From Escherichia phage BP9, in the sequence record PP488543.1: a stretch of DNA of 64,000 nt; one strand, 5' to 3'. Position 1 is the first letter of the stretch. The number at the start of each line of letters is the position of its first letter. Both the position numbers and the translations under genes were made by a program. Shown one piece after another: positions 251 through 61,362 of this stretch. The notes below the pieces were generated by a model. It searched no databases. It was not told the origin of the DNA and saw nothing but the letters and a program-made list of their open reading frames with translations.

Positions 251-1797
251 TGTCTAAGATTTACGGACCGTGTTCTGAAAAGCAGAAGATGATCCTCGAA
301 AACGATGCAGATATCTTGGTAATCGGCGGTGCCGCAGGGTCTGGCAAGTCGTTCCTCTTGCAGTTGATGCCACTTAAAATTATTGATGACCCCCACAGCT
401 CTGTGGTTATGTTCCGAAGAACAACCCCACAGTTAGAAGGTGAGGGTGGACTATGGCCTAAAGCAGTAGCTATTTATAGTGATCTGCCTGAAAACATTAA
501 GCCAAAGTTCAGAGAGAAGGATCATAAGTTCATTTTTCCACGGTTTGATCCGAACACTGGTAAGTGGGATAGAAGCAAAAAGGGAGCTGTTGTAAAATAC
601 TGCCATATGGAGTATGTACAAGATAAGCTTAACCATCAGGGGCTTGAGTACACCATGGTTTGCTTCGATGAGGGCACGCAGTTCGAATGGGAGCAGATAG
701 ACTACCTGATGTCTCGTCTGCGATCTCAGTCAAAGTATCCATCAAGAATGGTTATCAGCTGTAACCCCGATTCAGAACACATGCTTGCCAAACTGGTTAG
801 ATGGTGGTTGGACGATGAAGGGTATCCAGATCCGGAGAAATGCGGTAAGAAAAGATATTTTATCCGACGCGACGGTGAATTTATCTGGGGGGACTCTAAA
901 GAAGAGTTGATAGAGAAATACACCACGGTTAACGGACTTGGTGTGGAGATCAAGCCAAGACCGTTGTCATTCTCGTTTATAGGCGCAACAATATTCGATA
1001 ATCCTGTTTGCTTAAGAGACAACCCAGAATACCTTGCTTTCCTTGAAGGTCTGCCGGAACTGGAAAAAGCTCAGCTTCTTCATGGTAACTGGTTTGCAAA
1101 GCCTGAGGGCGCAAACTATTTTCAAAGATCTTTCCTTCGTGATGCCGATAGAGTACCCCTTGGATCAGTATCTTGCAGGGCATGGGATAAGGCAGGAACC
1201 GAGAGAACTTCCGGTAATAAATTTCCTGACTTTACCGCCAGTGTTAAGGTAAGTAAAGATAGCGACGGCTTTTATTACCTGTCCGGTGATTATTGTCCTG
1301 AGAACGTGGATGACGGGAGGTATTCCACAGGTATAGAAGGCAAGTTCTGTAAAAAGGCTGGTGAACGAGATGTGATCATCAGGAAACAGGCGCAGTTCGA
1401 TGGTGATGATTGCATAATCGTCTTCTCTGTGGACCCAGGGCAGGCAGGTAAGAGTGAGTTCTTAACATCCTCCAGATCCTTGCTCGCCGAAGGGTTCAGG
1501 GTTGAAGAAGACCCAATGCCTTCCAACAAATCTAAACTGACAAGGTTCTCACCTTTTGCCAATCTTGCCCAACAAGGAATGGTGAGAATTGTAAAATCCA
1601 GTTTCCATCCTGATACTCTGGAAGCATTTCTGACTGAACTTGAAAAATTCAACGGGGAAAGATCAACATTTAACAGAAAAGACGACTGGGCCGACTGTGT
1701 AGCTTCTGCGATTAATTTCCTGGAGAAAGAGGAGGTAGCACTTCCTTGTGTGATTCCATCAATCTCATCACCTTCTATGTTCAAGCGTTTTATCTAA
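250..1797 (+). CDS. terminase large subunit
   Basis: 515 aa; Walker A-like VIGGAAGSGKS near N-terminus; SD AGGAGA upstream; first gene of packaging/head module. Confidence 0.85.
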   Translation: MSKIYGPCSEKQKMILENDADILVIGGAAGSGKSFLLQLMPLKIIDDPHSSVVMFRRTTPQLEGEGGLWPKAVAIYSDLPENIKPKFREKDHKFIFPRFDPNTGKWDRSKKGAVVKYCHMEYVQDKLNHQGLEYTMVCFDEGTQFEWEQIDYLMSRLRSQSKYPSRMVISCNPDSEHMLAKLVRWWLDDEGYPDPEKCGKKRYFIRRDGEFIWGDSKEELIEKYTTVNGLGVEIKPRPLSFSFIGATIFDNPVCLRDNPEYLAFLEGLPELEKAQLLHGNWFAKPEGANYFQRSFLRDADRVPLGSVSCRAWDKAGTERTSGNKFPDFTASVKVSKDSDGFYYLSGDYCPENVDDGRYSTGIEGKFCKKAGERDVIIRKQAQFDGDDCIIVFSVDPGQAGKSEFLTSSRSLLAEGFRVEEDPMPSNKSKLTRFSPFANLAQQGMVRIVKSSFHPDTLEAFLTELEKFNGERSTFNRKDDWADCVASAINFLEKEEVALPCVIPSISSPSMFKRFI

Positions 1798-1846
1798 GTG
1801 TTGCCAATCTTAATTAGATGTGGTAGAATAGAGTAATCGGAGATAC

Positions 1847-1875
1847 TAGCCCTCTAACACGAGGGCTATTTTGTT
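1847..1875 (+). terminator. intrinsic terminator-like hairpin between terminase and portal
   Basis: TAGCCCTC-TAACAC-GAGGGCTA followed by TTTTGTT. Confidence 0.5.
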
Positions 1876-1899
1876 ATACTGTTTTGAGGGGTAAAGCTT

Positions 1900-3456
1900 G
1901 TGTCCAAAAAGAACCGCAGGAAACACAACGCCACAGCCAAAACTGTGAATAAATCTGGGAACGCAGGCGCACCAACTCATAATGTTCGTATGAGTGAGAT
2001 CGGTTCTGGCGCACTTTCCCAAATTATGGCAGAATCGCAATCTATGATGGTTGAGGAATTGCGTTGGCCTCAGCTGATTGCCACAGTGGAGACTATGAAA
2101 TGTGATTCCACAGTTGCTACTGCCTTAGATACAAAATATGTTTTCATCACGAAAGCATTCAATGATTTTAAGATCCTTTATAATGTTAAAAGTGAAGACT
2201 CTAAGAAAGCTGCCGAGCTTATAGAGTATTCTTTGCGTAATTTGGCAAACCAACAAACTCTTCGAGATATTGCAAGAAGCGCAGCTACCTTTAACGAGTA
2301 TGGTTTTTCACTGTTTGAGAAAGTATACCGCAGAGAGAAAGAAGGTAAATATGCCGGGATGCTTCTTATTGATAAAATTGCATTCCGACCTCAGGCCAGT
2401 TTGTCCAGATCAGAGCCGTTTGTCTTTGACAAGAATAGTAGAGCACTGACAGGTATTTATCAGTCACCTAATGCATTTCTAAACACTCAGAATGCACGCT
2501 GGGCTGGACCTCTTGCTGCAATGCCTTCAAAAGGCTTTAATGAGCCTGAAATTTTCATCCCTGCTAAAAAGCTTATGCTCATGACCCTGTCAGGAACAGA
2601 ATCTAACCCTGCAGGTGTGTCACCTATGATAGGTTGCTACAGATCTTTCCGTGAGAAAGTTCTGATTGAAAACCTTGAGGTTGTTGGCTGTTCCAAAGAC
2701 CTTGGTGGTGTGCTTGAGCTGAAAATTCCTTCCAATATTTTGAACAAGGCCAGCATTGACCCGAATTCAATGGAGGGGAGAATGGTTGCAGACCTTATGC
2801 TTGACGCAGCAAACGCCCATAGTGGTGAGCAAAGTTTCTTTATACTTCCGTCTGATAGAGATAAGTCTGGTAAAGAGCTTTACTCCATGACCCTGAAGGG
2901 GGTTGACGGTATGGGTAAGCAGTATTCCACTAAAGATTTGATTGATGCCCGTAAGAAGGCGATTCTTGACCGTTTCGGTGCTGGCTTTATTAACCTCGGT
3001 AACGATAACGTTGGATCCTTCTCTCTGTCTGAGTCAAAACAGTCTATCCATGGTCATTTTGTTCAGCGTGATATAGATATTATCACTGAAGCCTTCAATA
3101 AAGATCTTATTCCACAGCTTCTGGCATTGAATGGTATCATCCTTGAAGATGATGATATGCCTAAACTGAAACCTGGTCTGATTGAAGAAGTGGATATGGA
3201 GAGCTTCTCCAAGTTTGTCCAGAGGATCGGTGCTGTAGGTTACTTGCCAAAAACTCCTGCAGTAATTAATAAGATTCTTGAAGTAGGTGGGTTTGATGAA
3301 AGATTTGACGAGGACATGGATCAGGAAGAGCTGATGAAGCTCTTGGGCCAGGATATCAGTAGGGCTGGTGATGGAATGGCTGCAGGATCCACTGGTAACG
3401 GCACTTCTAAGATGTCATCAACCAGAGATAATTCCATATCCAACATGGAAAATTAA
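1900..3456 (+). CDS. portal protein
   Basis: 518 aa ORF immediately downstream of terminase; GTG start with SD GAGGGG; size and position typical of portal. Confidence 0.65.
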   Translation: MSKKNRRKHNATAKTVNKSGNAGAPTHNVRMSEIGSGALSQIMAESQSMMVEELRWPQLIATVETMKCDSTVATALDTKYVFITKAFNDFKILYNVKSEDSKKAAELIEYSLRNLANQQTLRDIARSAATFNEYGFSLFEKVYRREKEGKYAGMLLIDKIAFRPQASLSRSEPFVFDKNSRALTGIYQSPNAFLNTQNARWAGPLAAMPSKGFNEPEIFIPAKKLMLMTLSGTESNPAGVSPMIGCYRSFREKVLIENLEVVGCSKDLGGVLELKIPSNILNKASIDPNSMEGRMVADLMLDAANAHSGEQSFFILPSDRDKSGKELYSMTLKGVDGMGKQYSTKDLIDARKKAILDRFGAGFINLGNDNVGSFSLSESKQSIHGHFVQRDIDIITEAFNKDLIPQLLALNGIILEDDDMPKLKPGLIEEVDMESFSKFVQRIGAVGYLPKTPAVINKILEVGGFDERFDEDMDQEELMKLLGQDISRAGDGMAAGSTGNGTSKMSSTRDNSISNMEN

Positions 3457-26325: not shown

Positions 26326-26430
26326 GATGATCAGAGCGCCATTAGATAATTTATTTCTTGAAAGCTGGAGCTTGATGGTGTTGAGATCTTAATTGCTGCA
26401 AAGCTGGAGCTACCGACAGGAACTGTCAGG

Positions 26431-44000: not shown

Positions 44001-46640
44001 TCTATGCAAATCCCAGTAACAAATGGGTACAAACGTGTTGTAATGATCATTAAGTGCGACCTAATAGGTAAACAAGTTCTTGCGGAAAACGGTACCTCCA
44101 CACATCCTTTTGAGATCGCTCTACACTATCAGTTTGCTGACTCGCCTTTTGCAGGTGATAAGAGAATATCTGATACAGATACACAGCGTTGTAAGAAGGT
44201 GTTGTTAGGTGCAGGTTGGTGGTGGTATGAATTTGATTTAACAGACAAATTCACCGACACGTCAAAAGTTGTAACGGGTCTTCGCCTAGACCTTGGCGAG
44301 AACATGCATAAAGCTGTTTGTGATGGCACCTATGGTGATCCTACAGTATATCTAAAGTATGTCTCTTTTGAGCATCCGGAAGATGTTGTTTACGGTCCAA
44401 AACTGAGATTGTTTGGCAGTTGGATTGCAAAAGACAGGGTAGGCATGGGTAAAAAGGTAAGAGGGTTCTTAGTTGATGCAGGAACAGAGGACATGCTGGT
44501 TAATGCAGTATGGCCTGAATTGCCCGGCACTCAGTGGGATAACTCTGCCAAATCTATAAACTGGTTCAACATTCACAGGGCTATGTGGACCACTAACTGC
44601 TACTTGTGGAGAGAGCTTAACGATCAGGCTTTTGGCTTCAGCAACGGCAGAAGGATGGCAATCATTTGCTGGACAACGCTGCAAAGGTGCTATGACCATG
44701 ACTACGAGATTGGCGGTAGGGCATGGAAAAATATCAGGGATAGAATCATAACCAATTTTGCAGACGACAACGGAGGTGGAGCACATAACTTCGGCACAAG
44801 TAGACTTATTCACTTGAATGGGTCATCTGCATATAAGAAAGAGGGTTATTCTGGGTCTATGATCGAGTGGGGTCTGGTGAAAGATGCTCGCGTATTGATG
44901 GGTCAACAACTTGCTGCTGCAATAGGACCTAACGCAGTGCAGTCTGTTAAACCAGCGTGGTTCGATATCCCAATATGGTCATCTGGAACACCAGGAACTG
45001 CGGCAATCAACCCTACCACTGGGGATCTGGAAATCTCTTGGGAGGACTTAAAGCAGGTTGGTGGCTGGGATAAGACTGGGTACCAAGTGCAATGGTGGAG
45101 ATCTGACGGATCGTTAGCGGCTGATGAGTTTGTTAAGGACAATTTCTACACTATGTCCTCTGCAAAAGCACAGCAATTGTTTGGTCAAGCAACTCCGTCA
45201 ACGATCACTATGTCTATGTGCTGTAAAGATACCAGGACTGGAGCTCTGGGGCCAAGGGTTGCTAAAGTTTTCTCAGGTATTAAGTGGAATCTTCCTGTTC
45301 AAAGTGTTTCATGGAAGCAAATAGGTGATAACAAGCTACTGGTTACTCCTGCCTGCCAGTTCAACGCAACTCTCAACGTTGACCCAGCTGTTGCAGCAAA
45401 CTCGGCTAGAGCTTCTGACTTCTCTGTGTCTAACACTGCCATGGCAGATGTGAGAAAGATTGACACACTGAATGCCAGAATTACCTGTAAAAACACTTAT
45501 GGCACATTCCAGATCATCAACAACTTTACAGATGTTGATTCTAAGGCAGTGAGGACAGCCAGCCAGACTATGCAGTTAGGCACTCTGGCATACTCTGCAC
45601 TGATCACTGAACAGTCTCCTACCCTTCAGGGTGGGGGTGTTGGTAAGTTGATTACAACTCCTGTATGGAAGCCAAATGAGTGGGTTGTATTCGATTTGAC
45701 TGTGGACTTCTCCAGTGATAATAACTGGACATGGGTAAGGAATTGTTTGTCACAGCTGATGGGTGGCCCAAACTCCATTAGTGATAGCCATGACTCTACT
45801 GACCCGAGTGTGTTCCAGGTTGGTAAAACTCACCCAGAAACTGGGGCACAGTTGCCTGACAGGAAGTATGCTTTGGTTTGCATCTCCAACGGCAAGGCAG
45901 ATGTAACCTTCTCAGGGACACACACATATAACGGCACTTACAACTTCTCTAAAAAGTACAGCCTCAAGGCAGGTAACATTGTAGACGAGGTTGGTGCGTT
46001 GTATAATCCGGGAAACGGGATAGGGATTGTAGGTGGTAAACTGCAGATGCAGGAACCTTCTATTACCCCTTCCAATGTGCCAGGAATCAGAAAGACTTGG
46101 GAAAGTAGTAATACCAACATTGCAACAGTGGATGCCACCACAGGATTGGTAACATTTAAAGCTACTGGGAATGTCACCATAAAGTTTGTAGTTACAGATG
46201 ATGCAGGGCGCAAAACGTCTTCAACATCTTTTACTGTCAAACAGATGGCACCGCAGTGGAGAATGTGGATAGGTACAGCAACAAACGGGGCATACCCTAA
46301 TCCGGCAGGTACTTCTGGTATGAAGACTTTCTCTACAAGCAAACCGATGGAGTACGGCAGCGGTCCTAAGGTAGGGCAGATGGTGTACTTTGGTGCGTAT
46401 ATTCCTGAAATTATAGGGCTTCCGAGAAGTCAGCTTCAGTTGCTGTTTGGGGCTGGTGTTGACGATCTTGCCACTTTCGGGTATAGCGACAACATCGAGG
46501 CTGCAAGGAGTTCAGGATGGGTAGGGTTCAGAATGGAGTCTGGAAAGGAAGGCAGGATTCTAGGGACAGCCTCTATAGGTGTTATGTTCCCTGGTGACCA
46601 GCAGTATCGTCTAGAAGCCTACGCAACCTTTTCTCGTTAA
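41004..46640 (+). CDS. giant virion-associated protein with RCC1-like repeats and Big_2-like domain
   Basis: 1878 aa; N-terminal GSGNNTYGSLHVDKN-type repeats; near C-terminus TWESSNTNIATVDATTGLVTFKATGNVTIKFVVTDDAG (Ig-like). Confidence 0.5.
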   Translation: MLPIPLLKLGRHFLDKRGGVKELAVLSYPIDNSDGTSTTVAYVNSLAILFDDGQLNITGYNRFGECRTGDLDTINYPNEAAWNVDHVWRADRAFVIRTFDNQFFYIGCTAGLIGSDAAGGNDVCVREWTPLPEQIVKGLHLDTHPERLVEVMGGINNTVWVMAEAEGTGILHLYGSGNNTYGSLHVDKNQHATPVKIGETSENPETGPWKNPSINCEVHDNSVIFGGPKGFWIAGYDFLRNNSRNDLVWPPAQITRDDLRGIPADEEWKGFMCGPNGAVVVTQRMHRPDDQQLVNVFYGQNIWGDDTWRSLNLTYTHEVIMARGYGTSGIFFNNGTKQYRGFSRNLCNDIGAQSANNSPRDNFIHYQALATAKYVEQRLPVSWTESVYFQGIHREGFLGTFTVVNGKLWWSGIPRGSFAGSNNLFGGRLNSQGFTEVPENWYKNVPVDSWGVDDIFDVNGVSSVSNIYIGDTVKMKLKPQPEGATFIIDKIELVNAAGTVVTDANYQFSTNWNHGGANEVIVTQYNRNVNRRGLYSVKITYHDKHGTGRTHTTRTLNWNTIVPAYPSDGKWHTVGRNKQFHVNDTVYFGLNAAQPAVEGDTSYMVRLHRMDAGSVTYDVTQEIYNQRRNTYDNLVQTQALWEFNPNGRGGKMLQVNEQNGTSLTVHEHPNPWPDPGKPNSGARTLKIVSHDVGYFGIRWEATVRYADGTTNNIGITLGGTSENNSLKIAYTPRGISIDNMDVVRNGYGDVNIKVTLGEHLGGERIIMYAFDHDPRTNGTYADQAWSYLISAPEPNTKEFYYGMKRDVCKKTGTHDWIAICVKDERTAWNEPVNRWFIGIPTRSDKYVEEYIVCMGGTNLNMCWNGDANNKYSDYDYMRDYSCNQWFNQPGYADRQARVNPAIFTDTQVFLTKQANEVQTFKNKYDPNKWFYNCYGAFFWGPGELPGGGSCFESATYASDYIMGQVKKYKIIPGPETLGNAVDPYIVMTALRSNMDGTSMSMQIPVTNGYKRVVMIIKCDLIGKQVLAENGTSTHPFEIALHYQFADSPFAGDKRISDTDTQRCKKVLLGAGWWWYEFDLTDKFTDTSKVVTGLRLDLGENMHKAVCDGTYGDPTVYLKYVSFEHPEDVVYGPKLRLFGSWIAKDRVGMGKKVRGFLVDAGTEDMLVNAVWPELPGTQWDNSAKSINWFNIHRAMWTTNCYLWRELNDQAFGFSNGRRMAIICWTTLQRCYDHDYEIGGRAWKNIRDRIITNFADDNGGGAHNFGTSRLIHLNGSSAYKKEGYSGSMIEWGLVKDARVLMGQQLAAAIGPNAVQSVKPAWFDIPIWSSGTPGTAAINPTTGDLEISWEDLKQVGGWDKTGYQVQWWRSDGSLAADEFVKDNFYTMSSAKAQQLFGQATPSTITMSMCCKDTRTGALGPRVAKVFSGIKWNLPVQSVSWKQIGDNKLLVTPACQFNATLNVDPAVAANSARASDFSVSNTAMADVRKIDTLNARITCKNTYGTFQIINNFTDVDSKAVRTASQTMQLGTLAYSALITEQSPTLQGGGVGKLITTPVWKPNEWVVFDLTVDFSSDNNWTWVRNCLSQLMGGPNSISDSHDSTDPSVFQVGKTHPETGAQLPDRKYALVCISNGKADVTFSGTHTYNGTYNFSKKYSLKAGNIVDEVGALYNPGNGIGIVGGKLQMQEPSITPSNVPGIRKTWESSNTNIATVDATTGLVTFKATGNVTIKFVVTDDAGRKTSSTSFTVKQMAPQWRMWIGTATNGAYPNPAGTSGMKTFSTSKPMEYGSGPKVGQMVYFGAYIPEIIGLPRSQLQLLFGAGVDDLATFGYSDNIEAARSSGWVGFRMESGKEGRILGTASIGVMFPGDQQYRLEAYATFSR

Positions 46641-46650
46641 CAAGGGGTAA

Positions 46651-46682
46651 ATAAAAAGGGGCCGTTTGGCCCCTTTCTTTTT
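46651..46682. terminator. bidirectional intrinsic terminator between convergent operons
   Basis: A-run, GGGGCC-GTTT-GGCCCC, T-run. Confidence 0.85.
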
Positions 46683-46686
46683 ATAG

Positions 46687-46887
46687 TTAGTAATACTCCC
46701 AACATGCCCCATCTTCAGACGGCTTGACGCGCTTACCTTTATGGTCAACATAGGTATAGCCACAACCTTCACAAATAACAGGTGCTGCATAGCCTTCCTT
46801 CCACTGATCCTCAGTGATCAGACCTTCCAAATCTTTGCAGTCAAAGCCAAACAACTCTTCAGAGCAATCTTTACAAAAATCAGCCAT
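46687..46887 (-). CDS. small zinc-ribbon protein
   Basis: 66 aa; CKDCS ... CEGCGY paired Cys motifs. Confidence 0.45.
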   Translation of the reverse strand: MADFCKDCSEELFGFDCKDLEGLITEDQWKEGYAAPVICEGCGYTYVDHKGKRVKPSEDGACWEYY

Positions 46888-46890
46888 TTC

Positions 46891-47337
46891 TCAGTCCTCG
46901 CATTTAACAAATTTTTCTACAGATCCACCAAGCACAGCTTGTTGTTTGATGGCACTTTCTTCATCATAGTGGATAGACTTATGTTCCGTACCTCCAAACT
47001 TACCTGTGTGGAAGGTGTGCACCCAAATCTCTTTAGGAAGGGATTTATTCTCTTCTTCCACCAACTCCCACATTCCCCATAAGTGATCTGTGATATCTCT
47101 GATGAAATATCCCTCGCCGAGGTTTGTATTCACACTATAAGCTGATTCGTGATTTCCACAAATATAACGGAAGGCTGTGTACTCTTTACCTGGTGTGAAG
47201 TGAGTGTCCATTAGTATAGCTGTTAAAGAATAAGGGTCTCGAAAGCCCAAGAACTTTAGTTTAACAATTTCGACATTTACATCTGCAAGATTGTTCATGA
47301 CGATCTCCTCTGTTTGGTTGGTGAGATAATCATACAT
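46891..47337 (-). CDS. hypothetical protein
   Basis: 148 aa ORF in minus-strand operon. Confidence 0.4.
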   Translation of the reverse strand: MYDYLTNQTEEIVMNNLADVNVEIVKLKFLGFRDPYSLTAILMDTHFTPGKEYTAFRYICGNHESAYSVNTNLGEGYFIRDITDHLWGMWELVEEENKSLPKEIWVHTFHTGKFGGTEHKSIHYDEESAIKQQAVLGGSVEKFVKCED

Positions 47338-47462
47338 AGATCTGATGTTGGAGTCAAGCTTAATTTTAAACGATTTTGGGGAGGTATTTTGTTCAGGAGG
47401 GTAATCACATAGGGTAGGACAATTTATGAAGGCACAGGCCTCGTTTGAGGCCTTAAAATCGA

Positions 47463-48049: not shown

Positions 48050-48521
48050 TTACTCCGGTTCAGGATCTGGGTAATCTTCAATAATAAAGGGCCATCCGTT
48101 CCGCTTAGCCTCAGACTTATACTCAATCTCCTTCATTGCAAACTCTAACTGATTCTTAGCCGGAATACATGCCGGAGAATCATCAATCCAGATGTCTGGG
48201 TAGATATCAAACTGCGCCAGATAGGCTGCCTTCTGAACACCTCCAGTATAAAACACACCAACATCAAGCTCCTTGCGCCAATACTCAATGTCTACATTGT
48301 CTTGAGTAATGAATCGGAAAGTCACAAGGTAGACTGTCCACCCCCTCCTTCTTCAGATCCCTGATCAGGCGGGAGAAGATGAAAGGGCTCGCATTAAATG
48401 TTCCATCAAAGTCAATGGCAATGATGTGTGTGCCGTGGCGTGTCTCATATGGATTGCTTGTGGTAAGATTGCTGTAGTTAAAAGGGACCTCTTCCCCGCA
48501 GTAGCTGTAGTCCATATTCAC
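48050..48521 (-). pseudogene. HAD-family phosphatase split by frameshift
   Basis: ORF 48285-48521 carries motif I IAIDFDGT; ORF 48050-48325 carries DD motif (IWIDD); the two overlap in different frames at a G5 run (plus-strand C5 at 48341-48345). Confidence 0.5.
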
Positions 48522-48848: not shown

Positions 48849-49415
48849 TTATTCAAACTGCAATAGCAAGTCCACCACCGCGCTAGGTCTGTCAACAAAT
48901 TCCCCAGGTCCACATGCCCACAGAGGGTATCCGTCCACATACCGCCAAATCCAACCTGCAGTGTGGAGTTCGAGCAGGGCAGTACCGTCCTTACTGTCAA
49001 CCACTCTTTCCCACAGTGTTGGGCAGCGAAGCTTGAGAATCGGATCACCTCCCTTATACCCGTCCATGTAGATACCCATTGCAAAGTTCAGCATCATCTT
49101 TTTGTGCACTGATCTCTTACTGAGGGTGCTCATCACTTCCTCTTTGTGAATGTTTGTAAGCTTCTCTTTGGCTACCTGCAGATCGTTGCAACCATTGTTC
49201 AGCAGATCTTCCAGACACTTGATCCGGAGGTCGTGAATGTCTTTGTCGTGTACCGTTGGCACAGGGTCGTAGCGGTATAGCACTGTTGATACAAGGTTGC
49301 TCGGGTGTGGGTCTGACAGCAACCCATAACCCCAATACTCTTCTGTATCTGAAAGGACAAGACACCCAATGTCTCTGTCAAGCTTTCCTGTGTTGTAAGC
49401 CACATTGACCGCCAT
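48849..49415 (-). CDS. hypothetical protein
   Basis: 188 aa ORF. Confidence 0.4.
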   Translation of the reverse strand: MAVNVAYNTGKLDRDIGCLVLSDTEEYWGYGLLSDPHPSNLVSTVLYRYDPVPTVHDKDIHDLRIKCLEDLLNNGCNDLQVAKEKLTNIHKEEVMSTLSKRSVHKKMMLNFAMGIYMDGYKGGDPILKLRCPTLWERVVDSKDGTALLELHTAGWIWRYVDGYPLWACGPGEFVDRPSAVVDLLLQFE

Positions 49416-49417
49416 GA

Positions 49418-49663
49418 CTATAGCTCCACTAGCAAAGTGCTTTCAAAGTGCCGTTCATGCAGACCGTTGTAAGGGACCACTTCCACAACACCATCACGGA
49501 CATACGGGGCCATCATAGTGGTATAATCTCCAAACGGGTTGGTATTGTCACTAACCACAACCACCTTCTGCCCTTCCTTGGCAGAGTGCCAAATAGATCT
49601 ACACTTCATCAGGTGTTCGAGAGCTCCAGGTAAAATTTTGTTACGTTCTTTACGGGTCTTCAT
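49418..49663 (-). CDS. hypothetical protein
   Basis: 81 aa ORF, tightly packed. Confidence 0.35.
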   Translation of the reverse strand: MKTRKERNKILPGALEHLMKCRSIWHSAKEGQKVVVVSDNTNPFGDYTTMMAPYVRDGVVEVVPYNGLHERHFESTLLVEL

Positions 49664-50109
49664 AACAGATATAGCTCCTTATGAAAGTGGTCTTTTAATT
49701 TCTCACTGAGAAACTTCTTGATACCTTCCTCTAAAGTGTTTTCGATGTAGTCCAGCTTAACTGCTTCGATGGACATATCATAGATCGCCAGCTCTAAGCT
49801 GTCAAGTCCCATCATAGCATGAACCATAAGATTTTCATCTTCAGATACATTCAGGGGACTTCCTATAACATCTGTAGGTAGGATAGTTTCCCAATTATTC
49901 TGAGTGGTAGTTCTCCCACCATCCACTTTACGGCGCAGTTCGAAGGTGTTCTTAGTGTAGAACACTTCATAAGAAACGATACGACTATCGCTCTCATAAT
50001 AAACGAAGTTCAGGTAGGAGCCTAGCCGCAGTCGGCAAACTTCTACCCCAAACCATTGTTTCTTATAAGAATTCAGGCTAATGCTGTCGCATTCACGCTT
50101 GCTCAACAC
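49660..50109 (-). CDS. hypothetical protein
   Basis: 149 aa ORF, 4-nt overlap with downstream gene. Confidence 0.4.
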   Translation of the reverse strand: MLSKRECDSISLNSYKKQWFGVEVCRLRLGSYLNFVYYESDSRIVSYEVFYTKNTFELRRKVDGGRTTTQNNWETILPTDVIGSPLNVSEDENLMVHAMMGLDSLELAIYDMSIEAVKLDYIENTLEEGIKKFLSEKLKDHFHKELYLL

Positions 50110-50360: not shown

Positions 50361-50624
50361 TCAGAAACCCTCTAAAAAGCTCTTGTAGAAAACAATCTCA
50401 GTATCAACACCAGTCACGATCTTGTCGTTCCGGATTTCATCGGTAAGATAGGTGTCAAAACGCAGAACCTGTGTGGTGTTGTCACACATCCACTCAGCTG
50501 TGACCATTGCGAAAATCTTAGCATCTTCATTATCTGGTGTGAATGTTACCACCTCGCCGCATTTAAACTTTTCGATAGGTTGCGTGTTAGCTTTCGGTTC
50601 TGCAATAGTGATTTTCGTGGTCAT
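50361..50624 (-). CDS. hypothetical protein
   Basis: 87 aa ORF. Confidence 0.35.
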   Translation of the reverse strand: MTTKITIAEPKANTQPIEKFKCGEVVTFTPDNEDAKIFAMVTAEWMCDNTTQVLRFDTYLTDEIRNDKIVTGVDTEIVFYKSFLEGF

Positions 50625-50890
50625 TACTCTTCCTCCATAGTTTCACCAAATACTTCGATACGAGCATCGAGCTCGGTTGCTTTCAGCTCCCCAACAAAAT
50701 CTTTTAGTTCTTTCTCATCCAGATCGTAAGCCCACACACAAGAAGAACATGCAGATTTCACAATCAGCAGCGTAGATACACGACCTGACTCTGTGATCAT
50801 GCTCACAATGGTCCCCACAGGGAACGTGTTGATAGCTTTTTTAACTGGACGTTCAGCTTTAATTACTACCTCTGTTGCCATAAATAACAT
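50624..50890 (-). CDS. hypothetical protein
   Basis: 88 aa ORF. Confidence 0.35.
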   Translation of the reverse strand: MLFMATEVVIKAERPVKKAINTFPVGTIVSMITESGRVSTLLIVKSACSSCVWAYDLDEKELKDFVGELKATELDARIEVFGETMEEE

Positions 50891-60133: not shown

Positions 60134-60984
60134 ATGATTTTCATCTACGAACATTTCAAAACCCGTAAAGAAGCAAGAGACCGCCGTGCAGAACTTGAGA
60201 AGAAGGGTTTCATATGTGCCATTGAGAAAGGCGACACAACCTGGACACTGGCAGTTGGTGCCCCAGAGTTGTTCGATCCTGACCGTGACAGCGTCTGCTA
60301 CACCCGTGAAGATTTTGAAACCCGCGAAGAGGCCCGTTTATTTCGATACGGTCTGGAAGATAACGGTAAGTACGCCATGATCTTAGATTTAGGCGAAGGG
60401 TCCGTTAAACGTTGGGGCGTGGTATACCCACTGTGTGTTGTTCATGGTGTGGGGTTCACTGGGGTAGCAATCAAGTCAGAAGAACCTTTAGTAGAAGTCA
60501 AAGATCCGGTGCTGGAGGTGGTGAGCAGTGTATCTCAGCAACAGACTCGAAGTATTGAGCCTTTGGTAGTTATTTGTGGGGAACTCCTCCAGATCACCTG
60601 CAACGAAGGCATTTTTGAAATTCGCCGCAGTGAAAGTGAGGAAGTTTACCAGAAAGTCTTCGACCATATCTCTGTCCAGAAATATGACGAGGCAATTGGT
60701 GAAATCCTTGTCTGGTTGGAACGCAAGAATGAGTTCACTACACTTGCAGACAACCTGATCATGAAAGATGGTAAGCTCTACTACTACGGTGTAGAGATGC
60801 GATCCACCATTGCAAAGAAAATTGAGAAAGATTATGCAGACGGAACACTAGATGACCGCTATGTGAAATTCCTAGTTCGCCTGCTACGCAATCCTTCTGC
60901 AAAATCTGTAAACATGCTCTACGATTTTATGCAGGCCAACGATATCCAGCTTGCAGAAGATGGTCGAATCATTTGCTACAAAGG
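60134..60984 (+). pseudogene. rIIB: rIIB-like gene, 3'-truncated at junction with IS2 remnant
   Basis: Matches T4 rIIB through ...[25 protein letters not shown]; ORF then runs into IS2 sequence to a stop at 61033. Confidence 0.75.
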
Positions 60985-61271
60985 AGTTCATTTTCCATCG
61001 TTTTTTTGCCGAGCAGGAGCTGGAGTTCTTTAATCTGCTTCATGGCAGCAGCAAGTTCAGAGGCAGGAACGACCTGTTCTCCTGCGGCCACAGCAGTAAG
61101 ACTTCCCTCCTGGTATTGCTTGCGCCAGAGAAATAACTGGCTGGCTGCCACACCGTGTTGCCGGGCAACAAGGGAGACCGTCATTCCCGGTTCAAAGCTC
61201 TGCTGAACAATAGCGATCTTTTCCTGTGTAGTACGCCGTCTGCGTTTCTCCGGTCCTAAGACATCAATCAT
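60985..61271 (-). pseudogene. insC: IS2 insC (orfA) 3'-truncated
   Basis: First 97 or so codons of IS2 OrfA present; remainder of IS2 absent. Confidence 0.8.
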
Positions 61272-61362
61272 CTGCTCTCCAATGACTAGTCTAAAAACTA
61301 GTATTAAGACTATCACTTATTTAAGTGATATTGGTTGTCTGGAGATTCAGGGGGCCAGTCTA
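60985..61362 (-). mobile_element. IS2 left-end remnant (terminal inverted repeat plus 5' part of insC/orfA)
   Basis: Minus strand reads TAGACTGGCCCCCTGAATCTCCAGACAACC... and encodes [56 protein letters not shown]...; match stops after ...KTMENELL near 60985. Confidence 0.85.

Follow-up and report, generated by a model that had tools for sequence, protein, structure and literature searches.

A probable slippage frameshift at a short G run in a conserved, dispensable HAD-like gene of a vequintavirus, with independent inactivations of the same gene in relatives

Several described systems resemble one or another aspect of the locus considered here. Some orthologues of the gene bear the label "polynucleotide kinase," the source of which is T4 polynucleotide kinase/3'-phosphatase (Pnkp, pseT); the latter has an N-terminal P-loop 5'-kinase domain, whereas the phage protein has no kinase domain. 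Among the capless C0-type HAD phosphatases, the nearest solved relative by sequence is BT_0820 from Bacteroides thetaiotaomicron (PDB:2obb); unlike enzymes of this type, the phage protein combines a very small core with a long C-terminal helix and an extra invariant Arg67, and escapes detection by Pfam and NCBIfam. At the nucleotide level, the poly-G tracts of Campylobacter phages and of bacterial contingency genes are phase-variable loci, and the locus studied here has in common with them that changes in the length of a G run (4, 5, and 6 nt) move a gene in and out of frame. A programmed +1 frameshift is known in prfB (RF2), and the present site is similar in that a G-rich Shine–Dalgarno-like element adjoins a position at which +1 re-pairing is open to the P-site tRNA.

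The window, that is, the whole 64,000-nt stretch of PP488543.1 (Escherichia phage BP9) analyzed here, belongs to a Vequintavirus (rV5-like) phage. The disrupted gene and its parts are as follows.

48050..48515, minus strand: the disrupted gene as a whole (466 nt), orthologue of DrSchubert bas50_0047 and Bas54 bas54_0047, with matching order of neighboring genes, for a 154-aa capless HAD-like protein
48285..48515, minus strand: upstream half, 58 native residues including motif I, then 18 out-of-frame codons and TGA (76-aa product)
48521, minus strand: alternative GTG start of the upstream half, giving a 78-aa ORF at 48285-48521 (the ATG at 48515 gives 76 aa)
48341..48345, minus strand: the lesion, a +1 insertion, G5 (plus-strand C5) versus G4 in relatives, in codons E57-G58 (GAG-GGG), from the alignment with five relatives
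48050..48340, minus strand: downstream part, W59 to E154 and the stop codon, now in the +1 frame according to the ORF layout
48050-48325, minus strand: the second listed ORF (ORF2), 91 aa, with IWIDD, starting at the GTG of V64 (48325)

A sequence-only reading had described this locus as a HAD-family phosphatase gene split by a frameshift at a homopolymer, with motif I (IAIDFDGT) in the ORF 48285-48521 and IWIDD in the ORF 48050-48325, and both motifs are indeed found in these minus-strand ORFs, the second of which encodes 91 aa. It had also placed the overlap of the two ORFs exactly at the G5 run. The C5 is present at 48341-48345, and the frame of ORF2 is open back to about 48352, so that the run sits where both frames are open; the listed ORFs, however, overlap at 48285-48325, and the run lies outside this interval, 16 nt 5' of the first start codon of ORF2. 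Deletion of one G yields a single ORF, 48050-48515, as had been expected, with a length of 154 aa from the ATG or 156 aa from the GTG in place of the suggested 157 aa or so. The repaired protein is 100% identical to the annotated intact product of DrSchubert bas50_0047, and a DNA alignment with five relatives shows G4 in each of them, with the 465-nt CDS uninterrupted; thus, the split layout is more than a chance arrangement of frames.

Comparison with the orthologues, which was to show whether the locus holds two separate genes, reveals one gene. The two-gene interpretation was rejected, as the orthologues have one CDS, and ORF2 has neither a ribosome-binding site nor motif I: no Shine–Dalgarno sequence is seen just upstream of its GTG at 48325, where the sequence reads GGACAGTCTACCTT. 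Other assemblies encode the exact 76-aa product as well, and both it and the exact 91-aa downstream piece are annotated in GenBank for phage BP9; no record of the 78-aa GTG-start version of the first ORF was found in the protein look-up.

The HAD gene lies downstream of the tail-fiber cluster in a leftward block of small genes, and the gene order around it matches DrSchubert bas50_0042 to 0057. Over 24 kb the window is at most about 95% identical to any record of the phage collection. Several other features of this region and of the window were observed. The large terminase gene is continuous at 250-1900 of the window; the DrSchubert terminase is annotated as two joined pieces (683-3113 of that record), with the homing endonuclease gene bas50_0004 inside. 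Window positions 46690-47340 and 50364-50881 are variable accessory regions, and a 148-aa ORF (46891-47337) stands in place of the 72-aa and 109-aa genes of DrSchubert. Three tandem 87-aa paralogues of DrSchubert (bas50_0053 to 0055) have fewer counterparts in the window, one of them matching at 100%, and the other two both matching one further region at about 40%. At its C-terminus (46200-46700 in the window versus 47000-47233 in DrSchubert), the large intimin-domain tail fiber is longer than in DrSchubert and completely unlike the last ~41 residues there, and one of the two C-termini may be frameshifted or recombinant. Finally, about 15 to 18 records under the name "Campylobacter phage" (MG065635 to MG065690), with C. 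jejuni as the stated host, are 96–98% identical to E. coli vequintaviruses in this region, and, judging by this similarity, their host labels look doubtful.

Neither Pfam nor NCBIfam matches the repaired protein, even at E-values up to 1, HAD families of Pfam match 0 of 59 relatives, and a direct sequence search of PDB with the repaired protein returned nothing useful; the only family match is PHROG 4919, of unknown function. As no Pfam or NCBIfam model detects the protein, the motif-based HAD assignment needed a test at the level of the fold. An AlphaFold model was built with 59 sequences for the query P0001, which is 98% identical to the repaired protein; it supersedes an earlier five-sequence model of poor quality (pLDDT 62) with weak Foldseek matches. 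The catalytic motifs are located as follows.

48399..48413, minus strand: HAD motif I, D35-F-D37-G-T39 (nucleophile Asp, and general acid/base at Asp+2), at the end of strand 1 of the model (E31-35)
48320..48322, minus strand: motif II, T65, at least 90% conserved in 59 relatives, at the end of strand 2 (E60-65)
48230..48232, minus strand: motif III, K95, invariant in 59 relatives, at the start of helix H95-100
48179..48184, minus strand: motif IV, D111-D112, predicted Mg2+ ligands, at least 90% conserved in 59 relatives, following strand E108-110 of the model

Within motif I, Asp35 and Asp37 are invariant and Thr39 is at least 90% conserved in the 59 relatives, and Arg67, two residues past motif II, is also invariant among them. 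According to the fold comparison, the mini-HAD model and solved HAD enzymes have a Rossmannoid alpha/beta fold in common. Taken together, the conservation of four catalytic motifs in 59 relatives and a confident model matching HAD folds uphold the initial description of a HAD-family phosphatase-like gene; by motifs and model, the assignment is correct at the superfamily level, with the product falling in a family outside the curated libraries. An exhaustive profile search with the same query, P0001 (98% identical to the repaired protein), retrieved 1,510 cluster representatives (E-value up to 0.001), mostly of 90–140 aa and matching residues 30–120. The mini-HAD core comprises about 90–100 residues and is followed by one long C-terminal helix. 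Rare distant fusions join this core to other domains, a cREC_REC cyclic-phosphate-processing domain in P0103 and a P-loop NTPase in P0123, and these two weakly hint at nucleic-acid end processing.

The intact 154-aa protein has a minimal capless HAD fold. By HAD chemistry, the substrate would phosphorylate Asp35, with Asp37 in the role of general acid/base; Thr65 and Lys95 would keep the phosphoryl group in place, and Mg2+ would be bound by Asp111/Asp112. The intact protein is accordingly presumed to have HAD enzyme activity, and the absence of a cap suggests a large substrate, e.g., a nucleic-acid end. The "polynucleotide kinase" label of some orthologues was rejected as over-transferred: no P-loop motif (GxxxxGK[ST]) is present in the 154-aa protein, the whole length of which is filled by the HAD core and one helix, and in the fold comparison it appears no closer to Pnkp than to HAD enzymes unrelated to it.

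The state of the run in about 115 phage records was judged by the match span: of 60 listed phage records, 59 match an 81-nt query spanning the run over 80 nt, and for about 100 distinct records listed among the approximately 115, the spans imply G4 and no net indel, the exceptions being JLBYU08 and V18. Public contigs encoding exactly the repaired protein number 159, and several hundred more encode sister variants. The repaired allele of the window differs from that of DrSchubert by five synonymous and no non-synonymous substitutions, and across 11 intact or repaired alleles pN/pS = 0.027, a value indicating that the gene is normally under strong purifying selection. The lesion is likely very recent, since the remaining coding sequence is unchanged. 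In IMG/VR, the G5 pattern had no matches and the G4 pattern only one, vequintaviruses being too few there for these counts to be informative; a search of the literature on Vequintavirus frameshifts and the rV5 polynucleotide kinase found nothing about this gene.

Despite this conservation at the sequence level, the gene can be lost in the laboratory. In the HIDEN-SEQ transposon study of Bas54 (MaxBurger, by coordinates), bas54_0047 has insertions at 23 of 28 TA sites and is classified as Non-essential, and the comparison of K-12 with a clinical isolate shows no differential fitness (log2FC +0.26, adjusted p 1.0) (bioRxiv 10.1101/2025.11.20.689424). This gene (49271-49735, 465 nt), which lies in a non-essential block (bas54_0042 to 0062), is the positional orthologue of the HAD gene, with the same neighbors, and hence the tolerance of transposon insertions in Bas54 shows that loss of the HAD gene is tolerated.

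The same gene is disrupted in other phages and assemblies, and the following lesions were verified at the DNA level.

G4 to G5: the window; SRR10368070; ERR2602148 (identical gene in GCA_018509705.1); SRR31618306; metagenome ERZ28590029
G4 to G6: JLBYU08 (two "putative polynucleotide kinase" CDSs); SRR25464460
W59 to stop (TGG to TGA): ERZ27283526
E9 to stop (to TAA): ERR10504950
T3 to T4 insertion at nt 117: SRR21752245
2-nt deletion at about nt 86: ERR9514310
GC duplication at about nt 17: GCA_041867915.1
1-nt deletion beside the run, in a lineage with GAA-GGG at the run: ERR13927946
two 1-nt deletions, the CDS being unannotated: phage V18

Two more N-terminal fragments of the G5 type, with substitutions of their own, were seen at the protein level only. 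Overall, the 465-nt gene carries lesions of at least eight types on at least 13 independent haplotypes, with G5 on at least four haplotypes besides the window and G6 on another; the off state occurs in about 3% of contigs and always on terminal branches. The independence of these events follows from haplotype distances, as each G5 allele is nearer to some G4 allele than to other G5 alleles. The window gene is six substitutions away from G4 DrSchubert and 13 to 16 from two other G5 alleles; the G5 allele of SRR31618306 is one substitution from DrSchubert, that of ERR2602148 is one to two from the G4 phages A51.2 and APECc02, and that of SRR10368070 is one from the T-insertion allele. Thus, G4, G5, and G6 haplotypes occur among close relatives, at zero to three substitutions from G4 alleles.

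In all 13 lesion-bearing loci and in V18, those neighboring genes that are present are intact. As a control, the longer 188-aa neighbor returns only full-length protein clusters, and for the HAD gene there are two clusters of fragments, with 16 and 4 members, although this comparison is rough, as fragments can hide in main clusters (a 66-aa fragment was found inside one). All six run-length changes fall on one of the gene's six homopolymers of 4 nt or more, the chance of which is roughly (1/6)^5 if the runs are equally likely to be hit; the gene has another G4 run at nt 19. The G run appears to be the mutational hotspot of the gene, which other isolates have broken independently at this run and still others elsewhere.

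Two observations on individual records may be added. JLBYU08 (OK272482) is alone among curated phage records in having G6, and its isolation host was E. coli MG1655 del pstSCAB-phoU, in which the phosphate regulon is deregulated; for a broken phosphatase-like gene, this is a curious coincidence. In the G5 genomes ERR2602148 (locus positions 1862-2665) and GCA_018509705.1, a single 267-aa ORF results from fusion of the 81-aa and 188-aa genes upstream; the match to the 81-aa gene extends only to residue 79, in the same frame as the next gene.

A 1-nt change in a homopolymer is the classic form of sequencing or assembly error, and the extra G could come from base-calling or consensus error in a phage that in reality has G4; the perfect repaired protein is what an error would give. 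Moreover, the assembly of the window has flaws elsewhere, namely, the following two.

26326-26400, plus strand: second homopolymer frameshift, A4 to A3, lesion at about 26361, in codon 12 of a baseplate gene, cutting the product to 21 aa
60981-64000: chimeric 3' end, the last 3 kb, passing from rIIB through the interior of IS2 insC to an E. coli prophage

Hence, the HAD gene is not the only frame-broken gene in the window. The baseplate gene, orthologue of bas50_0029 and bas54_0029, reads CTTGAAAAGCTGG in relatives and CTTGAAAGCTGG in the window; all 30 phage records listed span one extra base at about 26361, none of the matching records exceeding 99.2% identity, so that among these records this 1-nt frameshift is unique to the window. 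At the 3' end, the vequintavirus rIIB stops at residue 287 of 401 (about 60981), followed by 381 bp from the interior of IS2 insC (60982-61362) and, from 61362, by the lysis cassette and integrase of a phiV10/epsilon15-like prophage, which E. coli chromosomes (e.g., NZ_CP063492) match at 100% identity. Transposition of IS2 into rIIB was rejected as the cause, the joint being inside insC and not at an IS end; for the same reason, the 3' end looks like a misassembly of mixed host and phage reads, judged by the composition of the joint. A look-up of the unique chimeric rIIB-IS2 ORF gave no match.

Nevertheless, general homopolymer noise is not seen: the phage part of the window contains 191 G/C runs of 4 nt and 30 of 5 nt, and of 73 DrSchubert CDSs checked, just two among those mapping to the window are frame-broken. 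Both broken genes can be lost by the phage on K-12, judging by their Bas54 orthologues: like bas54_0047, bas54_0029 (class "Intermediate," 28 of 35 sites hit) is losable on K-12, being required on the clinical isolate (bioRxiv 10.1101/2025.11.20.689424). A site-specific systematic error could in principle produce the same G5 in about 1–2% of assemblies; however, G5 is found in 130-kb contigs of the short-read type from several unrelated runs and in a metagenome, the split has been annotated by two GenBank submitters (BP9, JLBYU08), and in other genomes the same gene has nonsense substitutions as well as indels outside homopolymers, lesions that cannot arise from homopolymer error. We infer that the extra G has a biological origin, and consider an artifact of assembly or sequencing unlikely.

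If the lesion is real, its loss of frame might have been selected. Inactivation could be advantageous on some hosts, with the G run behaving in a contingency-like manner (G4 on; G5/G6 off); the product would then be costly or sensed by host defense, and alternation of hosts would explain purifying selection together with fresh knock-outs. Such a switch would fit the accumulation of at least 13 lesion haplotypes of at least eight types in one gene with intact neighbors, the run lengths of 4, 5, and 6 among close relatives, the concentration of all six run-length changes on one of six homopolymers of at least 4 nt, and the lack of fragment clusters for the equally dispensable 188-aa neighbor. 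Of the features of contingency loci, several tract lengths are indeed observed, but the long tract, typically of 7 nt or more, is not, the ancestral length being 4 nt, and even the range of 4 to 6 nt is far shorter than in known hypermutable tracts. No reversion has been observed, all lesions lie on terminal branches, and no lineage keeps the off state. The gene thus differs from phase-variable loci in its 4–6 nt tract, its rare terminal off state, and the lack of evident reversion or a regulated role. Besides, the pN/pS of 0.027 says that the gene is normally useful, and disruption of bas54_0047 gave no fitness gain on K-12 or the clinical isolate, so that the transposon screen lends no support to selected loss. 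An adaptive loss or switch therefore seems rather improbable.

The full-length protein might also be made from the G5 allele by programmed recoding, either +1 frameshifting at GGG-G or transcriptional slippage. In the G5 allele, the P-site tRNA-Gly can re-pair perfectly one base downstream, and a Shine–Dalgarno-like AAGGAGG, read directly from the sequence, overlaps the site. But G5 is conserved in no lineage, the nearest relatives of each G5 allele being G4 and in frame; the A site holds GUG, neither a slow nor a stop codon; and there is no downstream structure, the 86 nt that follow the run having a folding z-score of −0.04 against shuffled sequences. Compared with prfB (RF2), the site lacks the conserved out-of-frame arrangement, the poor A-site codon, and the stimulatory structure. 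The G6 allele and the other lesions would need different shifts, and a run of five G is too short for efficient slippage of RNA polymerase. Trace read-through by +1 re-pairing of tRNA-Gly on GGG-G is possible, yet programmed recoding as such is very improbable.

Taking all this into account, we favor a real, recent, neutral slippage mutation at a hotspot in a dispensable gene, with a probability of roughly 0.7; the same process would account for the recurrence. Of the three options left by the sequence-only reading, recent pseudogenization at a slippage-prone site agrees best with the data, the functional or programmed site finds no support, and sequencing error keeps a minor share. In the preferred reading, replication slippage would have added one G to the G4 run (GAG-GGG, codons 57–58), shifting the frame after residue 58, and the phage would have borne the insertion since lytic growth on laboratory hosts does not require this gene. 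Motif I is thereby stranded on the 76-aa product, and motifs II to IV are left in a downstream frame devoid of a proper ribosome-binding site. By the established HAD mechanism, neither piece can be an active HAD enzyme, and the G5 allele would yield active enzyme only via rare spontaneous slippage.

The locus is thus an ordinary frameshift pseudogene of a conserved, dispensable mini-HAD accessory gene, and it is mildly unusual only in having been inactivated repeatedly and independently, with the lesions concentrated in one short run of G. For annotation, it should be recorded as one frameshifted gene or pseudogene, the two hypothetical proteins or two "polynucleotide kinases" of the BP9 and JLBYU08 records being the wrong form. 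If the lesion were only an assembly error, the value of the finding would lie in quality control of the source assembly. The analysis also draws attention to an uncharacterized mini-HAD family with about 1,500 cluster representatives, PHROG 4919 and no Pfam model, and indicates that a run of only four G can behave as a gene-specific hotspot. The gain for phage biology is modest: a vequintavirus HAD gene that is strongly conserved and dispensable in the laboratory is repeatedly knocked out in sequenced isolates, and this conserved-yet-knocked-out pattern makes it a candidate host-interaction factor.
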